Shown here: positions 11,551-22,521 of the stretch, piece after piece | Layout of the letters: the number at the start of each line of letters is the position of its first letter | Numbering within the stretch: position 1 is the stretch's first letter | Assembly: GCA_963843975.1 (NCBI GenBank) | Contig: CAWJMG010000003.1 | Span: 1,290,001-1,322,000 of the forward strand | Origin: an uncultured Actinomycetes bacterium | GTDB lineage: Bacteria > Actinomycetota > Actinomycetes > S36-B12 > CAIYMF01 | Length of the DNA stretch: 32,000 nucleotides | Direction of reading: 5' to 3' | The notes under the pieces: model-generated | Seen by the model: the letters and a program-made list of their open reading frames with translations, nothing else | Database searches by the model: none | What the model was told of the DNA's origin: nothing | Position numbers and translations under genes: made by a program

Positions 11551-11704
11551 GGGGGGATCCTCCGTGGTGTGGCTCGCCCGCACGACCACGGACGTGGGCA
11601 CGATGCTAAGCGGCGAATTCACCGGGTGTTCACCCCGTCACCCGTTCGTCGCAAAGGTTGACCCATTCGTCACTCACTCTGAGCGAGGCCCGGACGTGCC
11701 GGAC

Positions 11705-12943: not shown

Positions 12944-13702
12944 TCAGACGTACTGCTGCAGCAGCAGCATCCGCACGACCCCGATCACGAGGATCGCCAA
13001 CGAGACCAGGGTGAGCAGCACCTGCACCTTCGGCCGCGTGAACTTCAGCGCGATGCTCGCGAAGAACAGGACGAGCGCGAGGAGCACGGCGACGAGGACG
13101 AACCGGGTCGAGGTGGTCGCGGCGACGTCGGCCTCCGCAAGCAGCGCCTCGGCGCGATCCGCCTCGGTGTCGGACGTGACCTGGGCGGGCACGACGTACG
13201 CCGGGAGGTCGAGCGGTGTGCCGGGCGGGATCGTGACGGGCACGCCGTCGGCGTCCAGCGTCACGCCGCCCACCCACTCCGCCTGAGCGGCCTTGAGCGG
13301 TGCGGAGAACCGGTCGTCGAGGAAGCCGGCCTTGCGACGGTCGCCCGCGTTGACGGCGTCGATCCACGACAGCCACATCTGCGAGTCGATGATCACCTGC
13401 TGGTTGGCCTCGGTCGCCGCCCGCCCCGAGTCGGCGCGCGCGATCGAGGACGCCGACTGCGCGTCGGACTGCGCACCGCTCCACTGGCTGGCCTGGAAGG
13501 ACGCCCACGCGGTCGCCACCGCCGCGATCGCGAGGATCATCGCCGTCCAGGAGTCGAGGATCCGCTGGCGGCGCTCCCACGGGTCCTCGGGGTCCGGCGG
13601 CGCGAGGTCCTCGCCGAGCACGACGTCGACGACCTCGGACAGGTCCTCGAGCATCGAGCCGTCGTCCACCTCGGTGGACGCGGCGGGAGGCGTCTCGCTC
13701 AT
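12944..13702 (-). CDS. Hypothetical membrane protein (acidic N-terminus, three predicted TM helices)
   Basis: 252-codon ORF with good GC3 bias. Hydrophobic segments are WTAMILAIAAVATAWASF, FVLVAVLLALVLFFASIAL and VLLTLVSLAILVIGVV. No family recognised. Confidence 0.7.
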   Translation of the reverse strand: MSETPPAASTEVDDGSMLEDLSEVVDVVLGEDLAPPDPEDPWERRQRILDSWTAMILAIAAVATAWASFQASQWSGAQSDAQSASSIARADSGRAATEANQQVIIDSQMWLSWIDAVNAGDRRKAGFLDDRFSAPLKAAQAEWVGGVTLDADGVPVTIPPGTPLDLPAYVVPAQVTSDTEADRAEALLAEADVAATTSTRFVLVAVLLALVLFFASIALKFTRPKVQVLLTLVSLAILVIGVVRMLLLQQYV

Positions 13703-13773: not shown

Positions 13774-15162
13774 TCAGACGCGGGCCTTGGCCCGGCGCGC
13801 TGCCGACCCCTCCGCCGCTGACGGTGCCACGGGCAGCACGGGCGCGGACGCGAGACCAGCGGCGGCGAGCGCCAGGGTCATCGCCTCGAGCGCGCGGGCG
13901 TCGTCGCCGAGCGCCCGGTAGACCTCGGCCAGCTGCCGCCAGGCCAGGGCCGAGTACCGCGAGGCCTCGACCGCGCCCAGTGCCGTGGCCGCCTCCTCCA
14001 GCAACGAGACGCCGATGGCGGCATCGCCGACCGCCACCGATGCGGCACCGAGCAGCACCAGCGAGTGCGCGCGCTCCATGACGCGGCTCTCGTCGAGCTT
14101 GTCGAGAGATGCCTTCGCGTGCCGCCGCGCGACCTCGGGGCGCCCGAGGAACAGCTCGGCACGGGCGAGCTCGGACAGGACCGGGCCGACGAGCATCGCA
14201 CCCGCGTGCTGGCGCACCTCCGGGAGGAGTGCGCGCAGCTCACGCCGTGCCTCTTCCGCACGAGGAGGGTCCTGGTGCAGCAGGATCCAGGCTCTCGAGT
14301 AGCGCAGTCGTGCCCGCACGAGGAGGTCGCTGCCGCTCTCAGCCCTGGCGGTTGCCTCGTCGGCGAGGCGCATCCCCTCCCCCGCGTGGCCGCGCTCGGT
14401 CGCGTTGATGGCGGCGTTCCAGAGCGCCTTGGCACGGTCGTCGTCGCTGCCCTCGGCCTCGAGCCGCTCGATGAGGTCGTCCAGGATCCCTTGCGCCCGC
14501 ATCAGATCGCCGCGTTCGTCGTACACGCCGGCGACCGTGACCACGAGAGGCGCGAACCCGGGCACGCCGTCGATGCGCAGGTCGGCGCCTCGACGCAGGG
14601 CGCGCTCCCCGAGGTCGACGGCGCGACCGAGGTCGCCCGCCTCCCGGTAGATGCGCACGAGGGACACGGTGACGGGGACCCAGGGCAGCAGCTCCGGCGC
14701 GGACTCGGCCGCCAGCAGCAGCCGCTCCAGCTGACGGGCGGCATCGGACGGCCGGCCGTCGCGCTCGAGGGCGGCGGCGCGCACCTCGCCTGCGCGGAAG
14801 AGCACCGGGTCGGCTGCAAGCGACTCGACGTCGGTCAGCCGCTCGTGCCACGGCTCGAGGAGGGCGACCGCCTCGGTCGGGCTGCCGAGCCCGAGCGCGG
14901 CCTCGGCGAGCACGAGGTCGTGGGTCGGCGCCGCCGGGGCGGGGGGCTCCAGGTCGGAGACCGGGACTCCCAGGCGCTGCGCCAGGACCGCCACGACGGC
15001 GGGGGTGGGCTCGCGACGGCCGGCCTCGAGGTGGCTGACGTAGCTGGGCGACAGGTCCTCGCCGGCGAGCGCGGTCTGGGACAGGCCGGCCCGCGTGCGG
15101 GCATGGCGCAGCCGAGCGCCGAAGGTGCTCGGCGCCCCGGTGTCCGCGCCTTCGCGAGCCAC
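13774..15162 (-). CDS. XRE-family HTH transcriptional regulator with a long C-terminal TPR-like domain
   Basis: GTG 15162 lies 4 nt after GGAAGGA (reverse complement of tccttcc at 15167-15173). The 22 codons upstream in the track ORF have poorer GC3. HTH segment: FGARLRHARTRAGLSQTALAGEDLSPSYVSHLEAGRREPT. About 400 aa of TPR-like helical pairs follow (YREAGDLGRAVDLGERAL, YDERGDLMRAQGILDDLI, YRALGDDARALEAMTLAL). Confidence 0.85.
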   Translation of the reverse strand: MAREGADTGAPSTFGARLRHARTRAGLSQTALAGEDLSPSYVSHLEAGRREPTPAVVAVLAQRLGVPVSDLEPPAPAAPTHDLVLAEAALGLGSPTEAVALLEPWHERLTDVESLAADPVLFRAGEVRAAALERDGRPSDAARQLERLLLAAESAPELLPWVPVTVSLVRIYREAGDLGRAVDLGERALRRGADLRIDGVPGFAPLVVTVAGVYDERGDLMRAQGILDDLIERLEAEGSDDDRAKALWNAAINATERGHAGEGMRLADEATARAESGSDLLVRARLRYSRAWILLHQDPPRAEEARRELRALLPEVRQHAGAMLVGPVLSELARAELFLGRPEVARRHAKASLDKLDESRVMERAHSLVLLGAASVAVGDAAIGVSLLEEAATALGAVEASRYSALAWRQLAEVYRALGDDARALEAMTLALAAAGLASAPVLPVAPSAAEGSAARRAKARV

Positions 15163-15199
15163 GTCGTCCTTCCGACCGCAGGGGCCGCCATCACACCAC

Positions 15200-15236
15200 G
15201 GGTCTGCGTGCCGACCCCCGTGCGGCACGCAGACCC
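15200..15236. promoter_or_regulatory. Perfect 14-bp inverted repeat in the divergent regulator/peptide intergenic region (operator or 5'-UTR hairpin)
   Basis: gggtctgcgtgccg (15200-15213) and cggcacgcagaccc (15223-15236) are exact reverse complements with a 9-nt spacer. It sits 38 nt upstream of the regulator start codon. Confidence 0.5.
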
Positions 15237-15336
15237 ATGGCCTCTCTCGAACTCTGACTGATTCTATGACTGACTTGTCACGTTACGTGTCACGACTCGC
15301 CCGATCGGGTGAGCCGATCTTCTTCAGGAGGACGTC

Positions 15337-15519
15337 ATGACCAGCACCGCCGCCGCCCGCTCCGCCGCTCGCACCGTCCGCCCGTCGGGCGCCCCTCGAC
15401 GCCGCGGTGCCGTCGCGGTCCTGCTCGCCCTCGCCCTCACCGCCCTGCTGGGAGCCGGGGGCACCTCGGCCTCCAGCACGCCCGTCACGGTCGCCGGTGG
15501 GCCCGGCCACTGCTGCTGA
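15337..15519 (+). CDS. Small secreted pro-peptide (60 aa) ending in GGPGHCC
   Basis: ATG 15337 lies 4 nt after AGGAGGA (15326-15332). Nearly all third positions are G/C. Organisation: Arg-rich n-region, h-region AVAVLLALALTALLGAGG, TSA|SS cleavage-like site, and a 13-15 aa tail (S)STPVTVAGGPGHCC. A perfect hairpin follows the ORF. Confidence 0.65.
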   Translation: MTSTAAARSAARTVRPSGAPRRRGAVAVLLALALTALLGAGGTSASSTPVTVAGGPGHCC

Positions 15520-15539
15520 TCCCGCGTGGCGCCGGCACC

Positions 15540-15570
15540 GGCGTCGCCCCGACCGGCCCGGGGCGACGCC
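15540..15570 (+). terminator. Perfect 12-bp GC hairpin after the small ORF (terminator or attenuator upstream of the MFS gene)
   Basis: ggcgtcgccccg (15540-15551) and cggggcgacgcc (15559-15570) are exact reverse complements with a 7-nt loop (accggcc). No U tract follows. Confidence 0.55.
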
Positions 15571-15649
15571 GTCCGACCGCCTGCGCCGAGTCAGGGCCAT
15601 ACCCCGGATATCGGGGTGCAGCACTGCTCGGCGGTCCATCATCTGCGCC

Positions 15650-17122
15650 ATGAGCAGCACGGTGCCCGAGCCAGGAACGTCCGCCGCGCCGTCGGGGCGG
15701 GAGGGCAGCGGGCGGGTGATCGCGGTCGCCGCGGTCGCCGCCCTCGGCGGTTTCCTCTTCGGCTTCGACTCCTCGGTCATCAACGCAGCGGTGCCCGGGA
15801 TCGTGGCGCAGTTCGGCACCTCGCCGGGCCAGACCGGCTTCATCGTGTCGATCGCTCTCATCGGCTGCGCCGTGGGCGCCTGGTACGCCGGTCGCGTCGC
15901 CAACAGGCTCGGTCGCCCCCGCACGATGCAGGTCGCGGCGATCGTCTTCATCGTGTCCGCCGTCGGGTCTGCGTTCCCCGGCGGCGTGGCCGGCCTCATG
16001 CTCTGGCGCTTCGTCGGCGGCCTCGCGATCGGAGCGGCGTCGGTCATCGCACCGACCTACATCGCGGAGGTCGCGCCCGCCCACCTGCGCGGCAGGCTCG
16101 GGTCGCTCCAGCAGCTCGCGATCGTGTCGGGCATCTTCGTCGCCCTGCTCTCGGGCTGGGCGATCGCTTCGGCCGCGGGCGGCGCGAGCCAGGACTGGCT
16201 GCTCGGCTTCGAGGCGTGGCGCTGGATGTTCCTCGTCGAGGTGCTCCCCGCGATCGTCTACCTGCTCGCCGCGCGCACGATTCCGGAGAGTCCGCGCTAC
16301 CTCGTCGCGGTGGGCCGCACGGAGGAGGCCCGCGAGGTCATGGCGAGCATCGGCCAGCCGGTGACCGACGCCGAGCTCGCCACGATGCGCACGCAGCTCG
16401 AGGGCGAGTCGGCGCAGAAGGTGTCGGACCTCAAGGGCCCGAGATTCGGGCTCCTGCCCGTGGTGTGGGTCGCGATCGCCCTGTCCGCGCTGCAGCAGCT
16501 CGTCGGCATCAACGTGATCTTCTACTACAGCAGCATGCTCTGGCAGGCCGTGGGCTTCACCGAGGACGACTCCCTGAAGATCTCGGTCATCTCGGGCGGC
16601 ATCAACATCGTGGCCACGCTCATCGCCATCGCCTGCATCGACCGGTTCGGCCGCCGCCCCCTCCTGCTGCTGGGCTCCGCCGGCATGTCGGTCTCCCTGC
16701 TGCTGCTCGCGTACCTCTTCGGCACTGCACCCGTCGTCGAGGTGGCTGCGACGGCGACCTGCGAGGCGCCGTGCATGCAGCCGACTCTCGCGGGAGGCGC
16801 CGCCACGCTCGCACTGTTCGCCGCCAACGGCTTCGTCGTGTTCTTCGGCTTCTCGTGGGGCCCGGTCGTCTGGGTGCTGCTCGGCGAGATGTTCCCCAAC
16901 CGCATCCGGGCGATCGCGCTGTCGGTCGCTGCCGCCGCGCAGTGGCTCGCGAACTTCCTGGTGTCCACGACGTTCCCGCCGCTCGCCGCGCGCGGGCTCG
17001 GCCTGGCCTACGGCATCTACGCGTTCTTCGCCGTCGTCTCGCTCGTCTTCGTCTGGAAGGTGGTCCGCGAGACCAAGGGGCGTTCGCTCGAGTCGATGGA
17101 CGCCGAGTACGCCTCCACCTGA
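15650..17122 (+). CDS. MFS transporter, sugar porter family
   Basis: ATG 15650 (MSSTVPEP..). Motifs GGFLFGFDSSVINAA, GRVANRLGRPRTM, PESPRYL and PETKGRSLE-like (RETKGRSLESMD) are typical of sugar/inositol:H+ symporters. The upstream part of the track ORF (15407-15649) is Arg/Pro-rich and was rejected. Confidence 0.9.
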   Translation: MSSTVPEPGTSAAPSGREGSGRVIAVAAVAALGGFLFGFDSSVINAAVPGIVAQFGTSPGQTGFIVSIALIGCAVGAWYAGRVANRLGRPRTMQVAAIVFIVSAVGSAFPGGVAGLMLWRFVGGLAIGAASVIAPTYIAEVAPAHLRGRLGSLQQLAIVSGIFVALLSGWAIASAAGGASQDWLLGFEAWRWMFLVEVLPAIVYLLAARTIPESPRYLVAVGRTEEAREVMASIGQPVTDAELATMRTQLEGESAQKVSDLKGPRFGLLPVVWVAIALSALQQLVGINVIFYYSSMLWQAVGFTEDDSLKISVISGGINIVATLIAIACIDRFGRRPLLLLGSAGMSVSLLLLAYLFGTAPVVEVAATATCEAPCMQPTLAGGAATLALFAANGFVVFFGFSWGPVVWVLLGEMFPNRIRAIALSVAAAAQWLANFLVSTTFPPLAARGLGLAYGIYAFFAVVSLVFVWKVVRETKGRSLESMDAEYAST

Positions 17123-20841: not shown

Positions 20842-20862
20842 CCGGCCCTTCTTCAGGGCCGG
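20842..20862. terminator. Short hairpin spanning the HNH gene stop between convergent genes
   Basis: ccggccc (20842-20848) and gggccgg (20856-20862) form a 7-bp stem with a 7-nt loop that contains the stop codon (tca at 20853-20855). Confidence 0.3.
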
Positions 20863-22379
20863 GTTCGTGGGGGTGCGGGGTCGGGGGGTTCGAAGGTGAG
20901 CCAGGTCGGGCAGCCCGGGTCGATGCCGGGGTTCGTCACGATGGTCCAGCCGCCCTCGTGCACGGCGTGGTGATGGCGGGGGCAGAGCAGGGTCAGGTTG
21001 TCGAGGTTGGTTTCCCCGCCCGCCTCCCACTCGTGGAGGTGGTGGGCCTCGCACCAGCCGACCCCGGTCCGGCAGCCGGGGAAGGCGCAGTGCCGGTCCC
21101 GGATCTCCAACGCCCGACGCAGCCGCGGTGGGACGGTGCGGTAGCGGCGTCCCTCGTCCCACACGTGCGCGCGACGGCGCAGCAGCCGGGCGGAGTCCGG
21201 ATCGAGGTCGCAGCCCGCGACCGGGTGCAGCAGACCCAGGCCGTGGTGGGCCTGGGTGTGCGCCGACCGGCGTGCGTCGCCGTGGTGGGCGGGGCCGTGG
21301 TGGGCGGGGCCGTGGCACGGGACACCGTCGTGGTGGTGGGCGTGCCGATCCGCGACCGACCCGACGGTGGACAGCTCGGTGACATCGGCGTCGCAGAGCA
21401 TCCGCTTGACGGTCTCCCCGTTGACCAGGACGGGGTTGGCGTAGCCGGGGACGGTCAGCTCGCCGGGGAACCCGGCGGTGACGTCGTCGACAGTCGTGGT
21501 CAGGGTGATGTGCGGCTTGACCCCGTGGGACTGGCCGACCAGGCCGTTGCCCAGCCACAGCTGCACCAGGTGGTTCAAGGACAACGCGTCCTGGTGCGCG
21601 GACGCGTTGCGGCGCCGCCGCTCATCGACCGCAGCGTCACCGGTGGGCTGCTCCTCGGGGGTCAGGGACCCCTCTCGGTACTGCGCATCCCGCATCCGGT
21701 CCAGCAGCACCTTGAGCGCTGCCCCGTTCTCGAGCGTGAGCGCGCCCTTGATCACGAACTGGTCCCCGACCTGGGTGACCGTCAGGAACTGGGAGGCCAT
21801 CGCCTCCTCCGCCCGACGCGACGCCGCCTCAGGATCCAGGATCTCCTTCAAGACCGCGGCGGCGCCGACGACCTCCTCCACCGAGCCCTGCTCGGCGATC
21901 GGGAGCAGGTAGCCCTCGCAGAACGTGCGCCAGGCGATCCGGTCGGCGTCGACCTTGTCCGCGATCGCGGCCTCGCTGCCCCGCACCACCGCAGCGGCCA
22001 GGTCCGGGGTGATGCGGCCGGCGACCTGCGCGACCCGAGTCGCGGCATACGAGCGCTGCGTGCGGGCCGCGGACACCACCGACCCCGCCCTGCCCGGCGC
22101 CATCCCGGTGCGCTGGGCCAGGAACGCCTTCGTCGACCCGAACCCCTGCGACAGCAGAACACCCGACGAATCGAGGCGATCCACCGCAACCATCCCGAGG
22201 GACTGCGCCGCATCGCGCACCGCGAACAGCTCCGCCGCCAGCTCAGGCAGACCCACCAGCGGCACCTCGGACACCGCACCCGACCCGGCCAGCGCGCACG
22301 CCTCCGTCAGCATCCCCCGCACCCCGGCGACCAGGCGCGCGAACTCACGCCCCACGTCGAGGGAGGTGGCCTGACTCAT
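20853..22379 (-). CDS. DUF222 / HNH endonuclease domain protein (13E12-repeat-type)
   Basis: ATG 22379 (MSQATSLDVGREFARLVAG..). C-terminal HNH motif: CAFPGCRTGVGWCEAHHLHEWEAGGETNLDNLTLLCPRHHHAVHEGGW. A His-rich insert (HHGPAHHGPAHHG) precedes it. Confidence 0.85.
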   Translation of the reverse strand: MSQATSLDVGREFARLVAGVRGMLTEACALAGSGAVSEVPLVGLPELAAELFAVRDAAQSLGMVAVDRLDSSGVLLSQGFGSTKAFLAQRTGMAPGRAGSVVSAARTQRSYAATRVAQVAGRITPDLAAAVVRGSEAAIADKVDADRIAWRTFCEGYLLPIAEQGSVEEVVGAAAVLKEILDPEAASRRAEEAMASQFLTVTQVGDQFVIKGALTLENGAALKVLLDRMRDAQYREGSLTPEEQPTGDAAVDERRRRNASAHQDALSLNHLVQLWLGNGLVGQSHGVKPHITLTTTVDDVTAGFPGELTVPGYANPVLVNGETVKRMLCDADVTELSTVGSVADRHAHHHDGVPCHGPAHHGPAHHGDARRSAHTQAHHGLGLLHPVAGCDLDPDSARLLRRRAHVWDEGRRYRTVPPRLRRALEIRDRHCAFPGCRTGVGWCEAHHLHEWEAGGETNLDNLTLLCPRHHHAVHEGGWTIVTNPGIDPGCPTWLTFEPPDPAPPRTRP

Positions 22380-22521
22380 GGCGTAATCGTACACCTGTAC
22401 TACTAACCATGGAAGCCCTGGAGCCAGCAATCTTCAGCAATCCCAACCAATCCCGCCGATCACCCTGCGCCAGTCGACACCTCCACACACCGACACGGAC
22501 CTCGAGCGCGGCCGCCGATTC

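Follow-up and report, generated by a model that had tools for sequence, protein, structure and literature searches.

An HTH-TPR regulator and a predicted exported Cys-Cys peptide form a conserved gene pair in Actinomycetota with an RRNPP-like layout

Introduction

The described systems closest to the locus reported here are the RRNPP receptors (Rap, Rgg, NprR, PlcR, as well as PrgX) and their peptides, for which a computational signature of five criteria has been formulated, namely a small pro-peptide of 10-100 amino acids, a Sec/SPI signal, a receptor of 250-500 amino acids, tetratricopeptide repeats (TPRs), and direct adjacency of the two genes (Bernard et al. 2023, PMC10075063). A 2025 structural phylogeny finds RRNPPA restricted to Bacillota, and its authors state that a remote outgroup is needed to root the RRNPPA tree and to settle whether its ancestor carried 9 or 5 TPRs (PMC12700828). 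Actinomycetota typically signal with enzyme-made small molecules, as described in the RRNPP_detector paper (PMC10075063). Here, we analyze a 32,000-nucleotide stretch of DNA from an uncultured Actinomycetes bacterium (contig CAWJMG010000003.1, positions 1,290,001 to 1,322,000; hereafter, the window, with coordinates counted from its first letter), in which a gene for a regulator with an XRE-type helix-turn-helix (HTH) and a TPR superhelix lies next to a 60-codon open reading frame (ORF) for a putative exported peptide ending in Cys-Cys.

Cell-cell signals of Actinomycetota include, e.g., butyrolactones, and the original prediction for this locus held that an HTH-TPR receptor beside a small exported pro-peptide is a Firmicutes paradigm that would be new in actinobacteria. 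The searchable literature likewise treats RRNPP as a Firmicutes/Bacillota feature, and in 7.7 million PMC papers and in bioRxiv, which leave most subscription journals outside, we found no actinobacterial RRNPP-type or XRE-TPR/peptide system. Compared with the RRNPP signature, the pro-peptide (60 amino acids; 37-60 in its family) and the regulator (462 amino acids) both fall within the size ranges, the regulator has about nine helix pairs of the TPR kind, and the two genes are 174 bp apart. Secretion was judged by sequence heuristics, by which the window peptide has a TSA/SS cleavage site.

Results

The small ORF has the marks of a translated, selected gene

The peptide gene (15337-15519, plus strand; 60 amino acids, MTSTAAARSAARTVRPSGAPRRRGAVAVLLALALTALLGAGGTSASSTPVTVAGGPGHCC) is divergent from the regulator gene and is supported by the ORF list, by its conservation in orthologs and by gene calls on related contigs. 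Its Shine-Dalgarno sequence, AGGAGGA (15326-15332, plus strand), lies 4 nt before the ATG and is kept as AGGAGGA or GGAGG in orthologs, and the G+C content at its codon positions 1, 2, and 3 (0.73/0.78/0.90) is coding-like in a window of 71.7% G+C. By sequence heuristics, residues 1-45 (15337-15471, plus strand) form a predicted Sec-type signal peptide with an Arg-rich basic n-region, a hydrophobic core, and a TSA cleavage motif, and cleavage at TSA/SS would release a 15-residue tail, SSTPVTVAGGPGHCC (15472-15516, plus strand), whose conserved core VAGGPGHCC occupies 15490-15516. The divergent ORF with its ribosome-binding sequence, coding-type third positions, signal-like N-terminus, and Cys-Cys tail had all been claimed in the original prediction, and all are seen in the sequence. 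No other ORF in the 32 kb has both a hydrophobic stretch and a Cys-Cys close to its end. The exact peptide sequence is already present in public collections, where it carries no name, and it belongs to no Pfam or NCBIfam family.

We compared the window with six orthologous loci of 68-95% regulator identity (seven orthologs in all, 68-100%), three from a genome scan (L001-L003, i.e., two Nanopelagicales metagenome-assembled genomes and Longivirga aurantiaca of the Sporichthyales) and three from look-ups of near-homologs (L090-L092). In all six loci, the small ORF occupies the same divergent position, and independent gene callers had picked it up before on related contigs. The n-region and hydrophobic core of the peptide diverge freely among these loci, and the tail reads [VL]AGG[PAS]GHCC in all seven orthologs. 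Over the last nine peptide codons, pairwise Nei-Gojobori comparison yields pS = 0.41 and pN = 0.04; third positions drift while the tail amino acids are held, which is the signature of a translated and selected peptide. Conservation of the small ORF and purifying selection on its tail had been named as tests in the original prediction, and both are seen in this comparison. Judged by these sequence data, the 60-codon ORF is a real gene.

Cys-Cys peptides adjoin the regulators across divergent clades

A metagenome scan with the regulator alignment gave 80 further loci (32-57% identity), for a total of 90 loci spanning 32-100% identity. To these we applied an adjacency test on six-frame ORFs with a hydrophobic stretch and a Cys-Cys no more than four residues from the stop codon, taking the 450 bp at the regulator ends as the flank. 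Such signal-like, Cys-Cys-tailed ORFs number 60 in the 73 kb flanking the regulators versus 2 in the remaining 267 kb, a density about 110-fold higher. A count of all dipeptides among the six C-terminal residues of ORFs beside regulators put Cys-Cys first (59 of 90 loci, versus two occurrences elsewhere); Arg-Arg came second, with 22 loci and 40 occurrences elsewhere. Including three cases that the filter missed, a Cys-Cys peptide adjoins the regulator in 62 of the 90 loci, and in 52 of the 67 loci for which both flanks are available. The original prediction had expected a small secreted ORF beside orthologous regulators; a neighboring small ORF whose N-terminus resembles a signal peptide is present in orthologs and also beside much more distant regulators.

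The 59 distinct peptide sequences of the family are 37-60 amino acids long (median 44), with 71 amino acids in Streptomyces. In 58 of the 59, the n-region carries a net positive charge, and heuristics find a hydrophobic core and a small-x-small site in all 59; the n-h-c organization of the signal is kept in 58 of 59, although its sequence diverges. Some members, e.g., the GCCKQ class, have no obvious A-x-A cleavage site. The Cys-Cys pair, which the original prediction had singled out in one peptide, is invariant in 59 of 59; it ends the peptide in 30, and a further 1-4 residues come after it in 28 and 6 residues in one. Exactly two cysteines occur in 54 of the 59, and 46 have a glycine four residues before the pair. 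Together, these statistics define a family signature consisting of a signal peptide, a variable linker, and G-x-x-x-C-C. Scanned at E<=10, ten representative peptides still matched no family of Pfam or NCBIfam, and those family members that we looked up in RefSeq, GenBank, or UniRef are named "hypothetical protein".

The tail classes (AGGxGHCC, GPxRCC, PPxCC, GGGxWCC, GCC[KR]Q, and GCC[KR]xxx) track the regulator tree. The orientation of the pair varies by clade, and the pairing survives divergent, convergent, and co-directional arrangements with the peptide on either side: the peptide gene is divergent and upstream in the AGGxGHCC, GPxRCC, and PPxCC classes, convergent and downstream in GGGxWCC and GVIGCC, co-directional and downstream in GPPHCCR, and co-directional and upstream, between holA and the regulator, in GCC[KR]Q and GCC[KR]xxx. 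Clustering all neighbor ORFs at 87 loci revealed no third gene common to all clades, the regulator being the only universal neighbor.

Cultured carriers include Cellulomonas sp. APG4, in which the order is holA, MNRFAKALAAAVLSLGIAVVGLPLDDTASVTAIGSSGCCKQ, regulator, rpsT, as well as Thalassiella azotivora and Longivirga aurantiaca. In the GCC[KR]Q clade, the pair occupies a fixed slot of the core genome, after comEC and holA (L058, 7-2002) or between holA and rpsT (Cellulomonas L093, 1-988 and 3006-3266), which indicates vertical inheritance rather than carriage by mobile elements. In Streptomyces goshikiensis, Streptomyces sp. Mg1, and Streptomyces sp. ADI95-16, the pair, whose peptide tail is ...TKDIPLCC, resides on giant linear plasmids beside a BTAD regulator. 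In two of these plasmid loci, a second small ORF directly follows the ...PLCC peptide gene (L096, 3340-3552; L097, 3384-3596); it encodes 70 amino acids with a signal-peptide-like sequence and no cysteine, and is itself followed by the gene of a large BTAD-domain regulator. On these Streptomyces plasmids, the module may be part of an island that regulates secondary metabolism.

One clade of regulators (L004, L010-L020, and L022; 50-57% identity) keeps the family-invariant TPR residues and has no Cys-Cys peptide gene within 2.5-3 kb; a few single loci likewise have no such peptide in this range. The members of this clade are either orphan receptors or their peptide is encoded elsewhere.

The regulator joins an XRE-type HTH to about nine TPR-like pairs

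The regulator gene (13774-15162, minus strand, stop codon included), taken from the ORF list and the sequence, encodes 462 amino acids from a GTG start codon, with the Shine-Dalgarno-like GGAAGGA (15167-15173, minus strand, by direct sequence reading) 5 nt upstream; a 95%-identical homolog, P0001, also has 462 amino acids as gene-called on its contig. A longer start at 15228 was rejected, as the extension is broken by a stop codon in L001 and overlaps the covarying hairpin described below. Pfam bears out the XRE-HTH and TPR assignment of the original prediction through HTH_31 (3e-14), HTH_3, TPR_MalT (4e-13), and further TPR families, among which TPR_MalT and TPR_14 reach their curated cut-offs and TPR_12 and TPR_2 fall below theirs. 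The HTH DNA-binding domain (residues 14-71; 14950-15123, minus strand) is defined by the two Pfam HTH families, by residues invariant across the regulator family (R17, R19, R22, Q29, Y41, S43, E46, and R50), and by profile matches in the PDB to C.AhdI, SinR, ClgR, and the N-terminus of PlcR.

The AlphaFold2 model, obtained with a 41-sequence alignment, has a mean predicted local distance difference test value of 91 and comprises the HTH (14-71) and about nine TPR-like pairs; DSSP on this model and Foldseek place the TPR domain, with 18-19 helices, at residues 80-434 (13861-14925, minus strand). A scaffold with a different known ligand had been considered as a way in which the peptide-receptor idea could fail; the model is instead an ordinary 9-repeat TPR superhelix. 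Outside the HTH, the conserved residues include E216, R217, G218, D219, W248, N249, R334, R402, and W408; the family-invariant ones include R217, G218, D219, W248, R402, and W408, and N249 is conserved in at least 90%. Odd-numbered helices of TPR proteins line the concave ligand groove. From helix order alone, most of these conserved residues appear to lie in, or at the ends of, the odd-numbered (inner, A) helices and would thus face this groove.

Homology searches matched 138 regulator homologs, and among the 120 listed nearly all are full-length, at 32-95% identity. In a profile search of 1.84 billion representatives, the regulator family comprises 1,159 50%-identity cluster representatives at E<=1e-30, the best 150 of which are mostly full-length. 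One protein of 1,125 amino acids, P0142, contains three stretches that match the regulator profile, which is explained either by tandem fusion or by gene calls that were merged. In phage genomes, the only tblastn match was an unannotated contig fragment of human-faecal origin (MT836207.1, 251-1069), whose HTH+TPR product shares 35.6% identity with residues 14-287 of the regulator; the search yielded no actinophage version of the system.

Conserved elements lie between and after the two genes

Within the intergenic region, the 75 bp before the peptide Shine-Dalgarno sequence form a conserved block upstream of the peptide gene, with a presumed regulatory role (15245-15320, no strand assigned), that is near-invariant in the seven orthologs and more conserved than the signal-peptide codons. 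A repeat search located TGAC-containing direct repeats with 12-bp spacing (15252-15294), a TGAC-N6-GTCA element (15267-15280), and the palindrome CTCGCCCG-NN-CGGGTGAG (15296-15313). Across the family, the TGAC/GTCA 4-mers are enriched about 4-fold (250 observed versus 60 expected) in the upstream 120 bp of 58 peptide genes. The TGAC repeats are probable operator sites for the HTH. A second TGAC-N6-GTCA (11659-11672), 37 bp upstream of a PKD/fn3 gene, was considered as a further operator and rejected, as it is at chance level and neither L091 nor L092 conserves it.

Some 30 nt ahead of the start codon of the regulator, an inverted repeat with covariation marks a stem-loop in the leader (15196-15240, minus strand), with 18-nt arms and the conserved loop CACGGGGGU. 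Over the seven orthologs, pairing is kept in 97% of cells, compensatory changes affect 9 of the 18 pairs, and the covariation score is 0.52 versus 0.22 in shuffles (0/500). The predicted folding energy is -44.3 kcal/mol on the regulator-sense strand versus -36.2 kcal/mol on the other strand, and this greater stability suggests an RNA element in the regulator leader, which possibly controls the regulator. An Rfam scan of 15000-15750 gave no match.

On the other side, 20 nt after the peptide stop codon, lies a GC-rich, terminator-like hairpin with perfect 13-nt arms and no U-tract (15539-15571, plus strand; inverted repeat, fold z-score -3.4). GC-rich hairpin-forming sequence follows the peptide at this position in at least three orthologs (L090, L001, and L091), in two of them with a different sequence, which fits a monocistronic peptide transcript. 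A scan for consensus promoters and terminators found nothing; its terminator part needs a T-run, and the scan as a whole is ill-suited to high-GC actinobacteria.

Neighboring genes in the window

The gene order of the window, i.e., NAGPA, MFS sugar porter, peptide, regulator, a 252-amino-acid membrane protein, a 320-amino-acid protein, and the PKD/fn3 protein, is largely kept among the close orthologs. L001 retains only a remnant of the MFS gene, and L092 has a PAS-GGDEF gene inserted between MFS and peptide; the peptide persists in both. The 252-amino-acid predicted membrane protein (12944-13702, minus strand), which has no Pfam or NCBIfam match, is encoded on the same strand as the regulator, 72 bp downstream of it, and is possibly co-transcribed with it. 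This gene is present in L090, L092, and L001 and absent from L091, L002, and L003; in L090, a second 252-amino-acid ORF is called after it. Farther away, a gene of a kind common in actinobacterial genomes encodes a DUF222 and HNH endonuclease (20853-22430, minus strand) and is unrelated to the peptide-regulator pair.

Discussion

A candidate exported-peptide/cytoplasmic-receptor loop

The reading that we favor, and to which we give an even chance, is that the two genes form an RRNPP-type loop of exported peptide and cytoplasmic receptor, belonging to a large and previously unnamed actinobacterial family. The genetic anatomy and its conservation are observed; from them, we infer every biochemical step of the loop. 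The pre-peptide would be exported by Sec and cut after TSA, releasing about 15 residues that are possibly trimmed further. The peptide would then accumulate outside the cell, where its adjacent thiols may oxidize or bind metal, before being taken up again by an oligopeptide permease. In the cytoplasm, it would bind the concave TPR groove, with its family-conserved polar and aromatic residues on the inner (A) helices, and this binding would alter the occupancy of the intergenic TGAC repeats by the HTH dimer, creating an autoregulatory loop along with control of further targets.

In favor of the loop count the selected tail of the peptide, the specific adjacency of Cys-Cys ORFs to regulators, the pairing kept in every orientation, the lack of a third gene common to the clades, the tail classes that track the regulator tree, the likeness to the RRNPP signature with secretion judged by heuristics, and the TGAC/GTCA elements upstream of the peptide genes. 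The structural comparison with RRNPP receptors speaks in part for this loop. In a Foldseek search of the PDB, LGN/Pins and designed TPR proteins rank first, and the list also contains the PlcR-PapR-DNA complex (3u3w_A, E 5e-6) and apo NprR (5dbk_A, TM-score 0.70 over 366 columns), the latter with the highest target-normalized TM-score in the list and with the whole NprR TPR domain superposed. The full-length regulator profile also matches PlcR among PDB sequences (1.4e-11, residues 10-197). Several results, however, count against the loop. With the HTH removed, the best 60 PDB sequence matches contain generic or designed TPR proteins only and no RRNPP receptor; because the TPR-only profile loses PlcR, we attribute the PlcR match to the HTH. 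The fold likeness to NprR is no better than that to a giant-virus repeat protein, which reaches a TM-score of 0.74, and the search of viral structures returned generic giant-virus TPR proteins only, with no arbitrium-like match standing out. The RRNPP likeness claimed in the original prediction therefore stands for the layout and for the computational signature, with secretion judged by heuristics, but not for specific homology of the TPR domain, for which neither sequence comparison nor Foldseek gave more than generic similarity to Rap, Rgg, NprR, PlcR, PrgX, or AimR. Furthermore, 15 of the 67 fully flanked loci, including the whole clade at 50-57% identity, have no peptide. In the clade of the window, the tail is conserved and does not diversify into pherotypes, and the universally kept G-x-x-x-C-C suggests shared redox or metal chemistry rather than a purely specificity-coding pheromone.

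The strongest rival, which we regard as unlikely, takes up these same points. It holds that the peptide is a mere target of the regulator, i.e., a small exported effector (metal-binding, redox, surface-attached, or antimicrobial) whose Cys-Cys end would act outside the cell, while the regulator senses some other signal and no peptide binds the TPR domain. Regulators commonly adjoin their targets, the TGAC repeats upstream of the peptide gene show at most that this gene is regulated, the invariant G-x-x-x-C-C together with exactly two cysteines in 54 of 59 peptides fits a shared chemical function, and both the generic TPR domain and the peptide-less regulator clade are readily accommodated. However, no conserved processing, immunity, export, or modifying gene stands beside the pair, the tail class tracks the regulator clade, and the two genes have remained together although their orientation was rearranged several times. 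In addition, the product is very short and its conserved part is the C-terminal one, a trait shared with RRNPP pro-peptides (PMC10075063).

It is improbable, in our estimation, that the regulator senses the unexported precursor or a membrane-held form, in which case it would report secretion capacity, envelope stress, or thiol stress, and not cell density. A peptide beside a cytoplasmic TPR protein is equally compatible with this arrangement, and the GCCKQ class, with no obvious A-x-A site, may stay anchored in the membrane. Nevertheless, the positive-inside rule would place the conserved tail outside the cell, and the n-region, which would be the part left in the cytoplasm, is the least conserved. 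Still more improbable, to a degree that makes it very hard to sustain, is a Cys-sensing leader peptide, in which ribosomes pausing at TGC TGC before the stop codon would modulate the hairpin at 15539-15571 and with it read-through into the MFS gene. The tandem cysteine codons at the very end of a short ORF (TGC TGC TGA), the strong hairpin 20 nt later, and a co-directional gene starting at 15650 are what such an attenuator would show, but the downstream gene is not conserved (the L001 remnant and the L092 insertion) while the peptide is kept, many family peptide genes are convergent with or downstream of the regulator and have nothing to attenuate, and the conserved signal organization and residues before the Cys pair are left unexplained. 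A chance open frame, which GC-rich DNA could provide as spurious ORFs are abundant in high-GC genomes, is excluded by the conservation data, i.e., position and tail kept in seven orthologs with synonymous but almost no non-synonymous change, as well as opposed by the strong Shine-Dalgarno sequence, the third-position G+C of 0.90, the roughly 110-fold density of Cys-Cys-tailed ORFs beside regulators, and the calls of independent pipelines.

Implications of an actinobacterial Cys-Cys peptide family

The Cys-Cys peptide family is undescribed in the searchable family libraries and literature. As a broader proposal, which we make tentatively and at slightly less than even confidence, Actinomycetota would own a phylum-wide, unrecognized class of Sec-exported Cys-Cys pheromones read by HTH-9TPR receptors, arisen either as an independent invention or as a deep outgroup of RRNPP(A), and the dithiol signal would report redox or metal state in addition to cell density. 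Since the pair is widespread (1,159 cluster representatives of the regulator, with a peptide at about two-thirds of the 90 loci), a signaling role would open peptide communication in this phylum, which is important for antibiotics and carbon turnover. Such a role would challenge the division between small-molecule signaling in Actinomycetota and cytoplasmic-receptor peptide signaling in Bacillota, a pheromone with a vicinal dithiol would bring a new signal chemistry, and the actinobacterial regulators are candidates for the outgroup with which the RRNPPA tree could be rooted.

Comparison with known systems

Amino-acid-sensing leader peptides share with the window peptide a short ORF that ends in tandem codons for the same amino acid, followed by a hairpin; unlike these attenuators, the family conserves its signal organization and the residues around the Cys pair, and it has no conserved downstream operon. 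Bufferins are Sec-signal-bearing, cysteine-containing ribosomally synthesized and post-translationally modified peptides (RiPPs), encoded beside MNIO/DUF692-type modifying enzymes. The Cys-Cys peptides resemble them as small, predicted exported peptides whose cysteines are probably functional but differ in that the only constant neighbor is the HTH-TPR regulator; because no maturase gene is conserved beside the peptide among the neighbor ORFs of the 87 loci, the pair is not a RiPP cluster.

Among TPR sensors, those of the MalT type (STAND) are similar to the regulator through Pfam TPR_MalT (4e-13) and the structure of MalT domain III (1hz4, 2e-8). This similarity extends over no more than some 110 residues of generic repeats, and, unlike MalT/STAND proteins, the regulator carries an N-terminal XRE HTH and not a C-terminal one of the LuxR type. 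Pfam and the AlphaFold2 model, which consists of HTH and repeats only, reveal no NTPase module (NB-ARC/AAA/STAND), and the regulator is therefore not a STAND/MalT regulator.

As in Rgg-SHP and PrgX-PrgQ, the window peptide is divergent from its regulator across a short intergenic region with presumed operator sites. SHP and PrgQ peptides, however, have no Sec signal and are exported by PptAB (PMC10075063), unlike the window peptide with its predicted classical n-h-c signal peptide, and Rgg and PrgX have 5 TPR-like repeats compared with about 9 in the window regulator.

The Sec-exported pro-peptide class of the Bacillus cereus group, NprR-NprX and PlcR-PapR, comes closest. The pair described here differs from it in belonging to Actinomycetota and not Bacillota, in the only generic similarity of its TPR sequence, in the divergent rather than peptide-downstream arrangement in the window, and in the invariant Cys-Cys, for which we know of no counterpart among RRNPP pheromones; the comparisons made here do not establish that it shares an ancestor with the RRNPP receptors of Firmicutes. 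The architecture of the regulator is nonetheless the same as that of NprR or PlcR, with an N-terminal XRE-type HTH and a TPR superhelix in a cytoplasmic receptor, its number of repeats (about nine) is that of NprR, and, as in both systems, it is adjoined by a small ORF with a signal-peptide-like N-terminus and a conserved C-terminal end.

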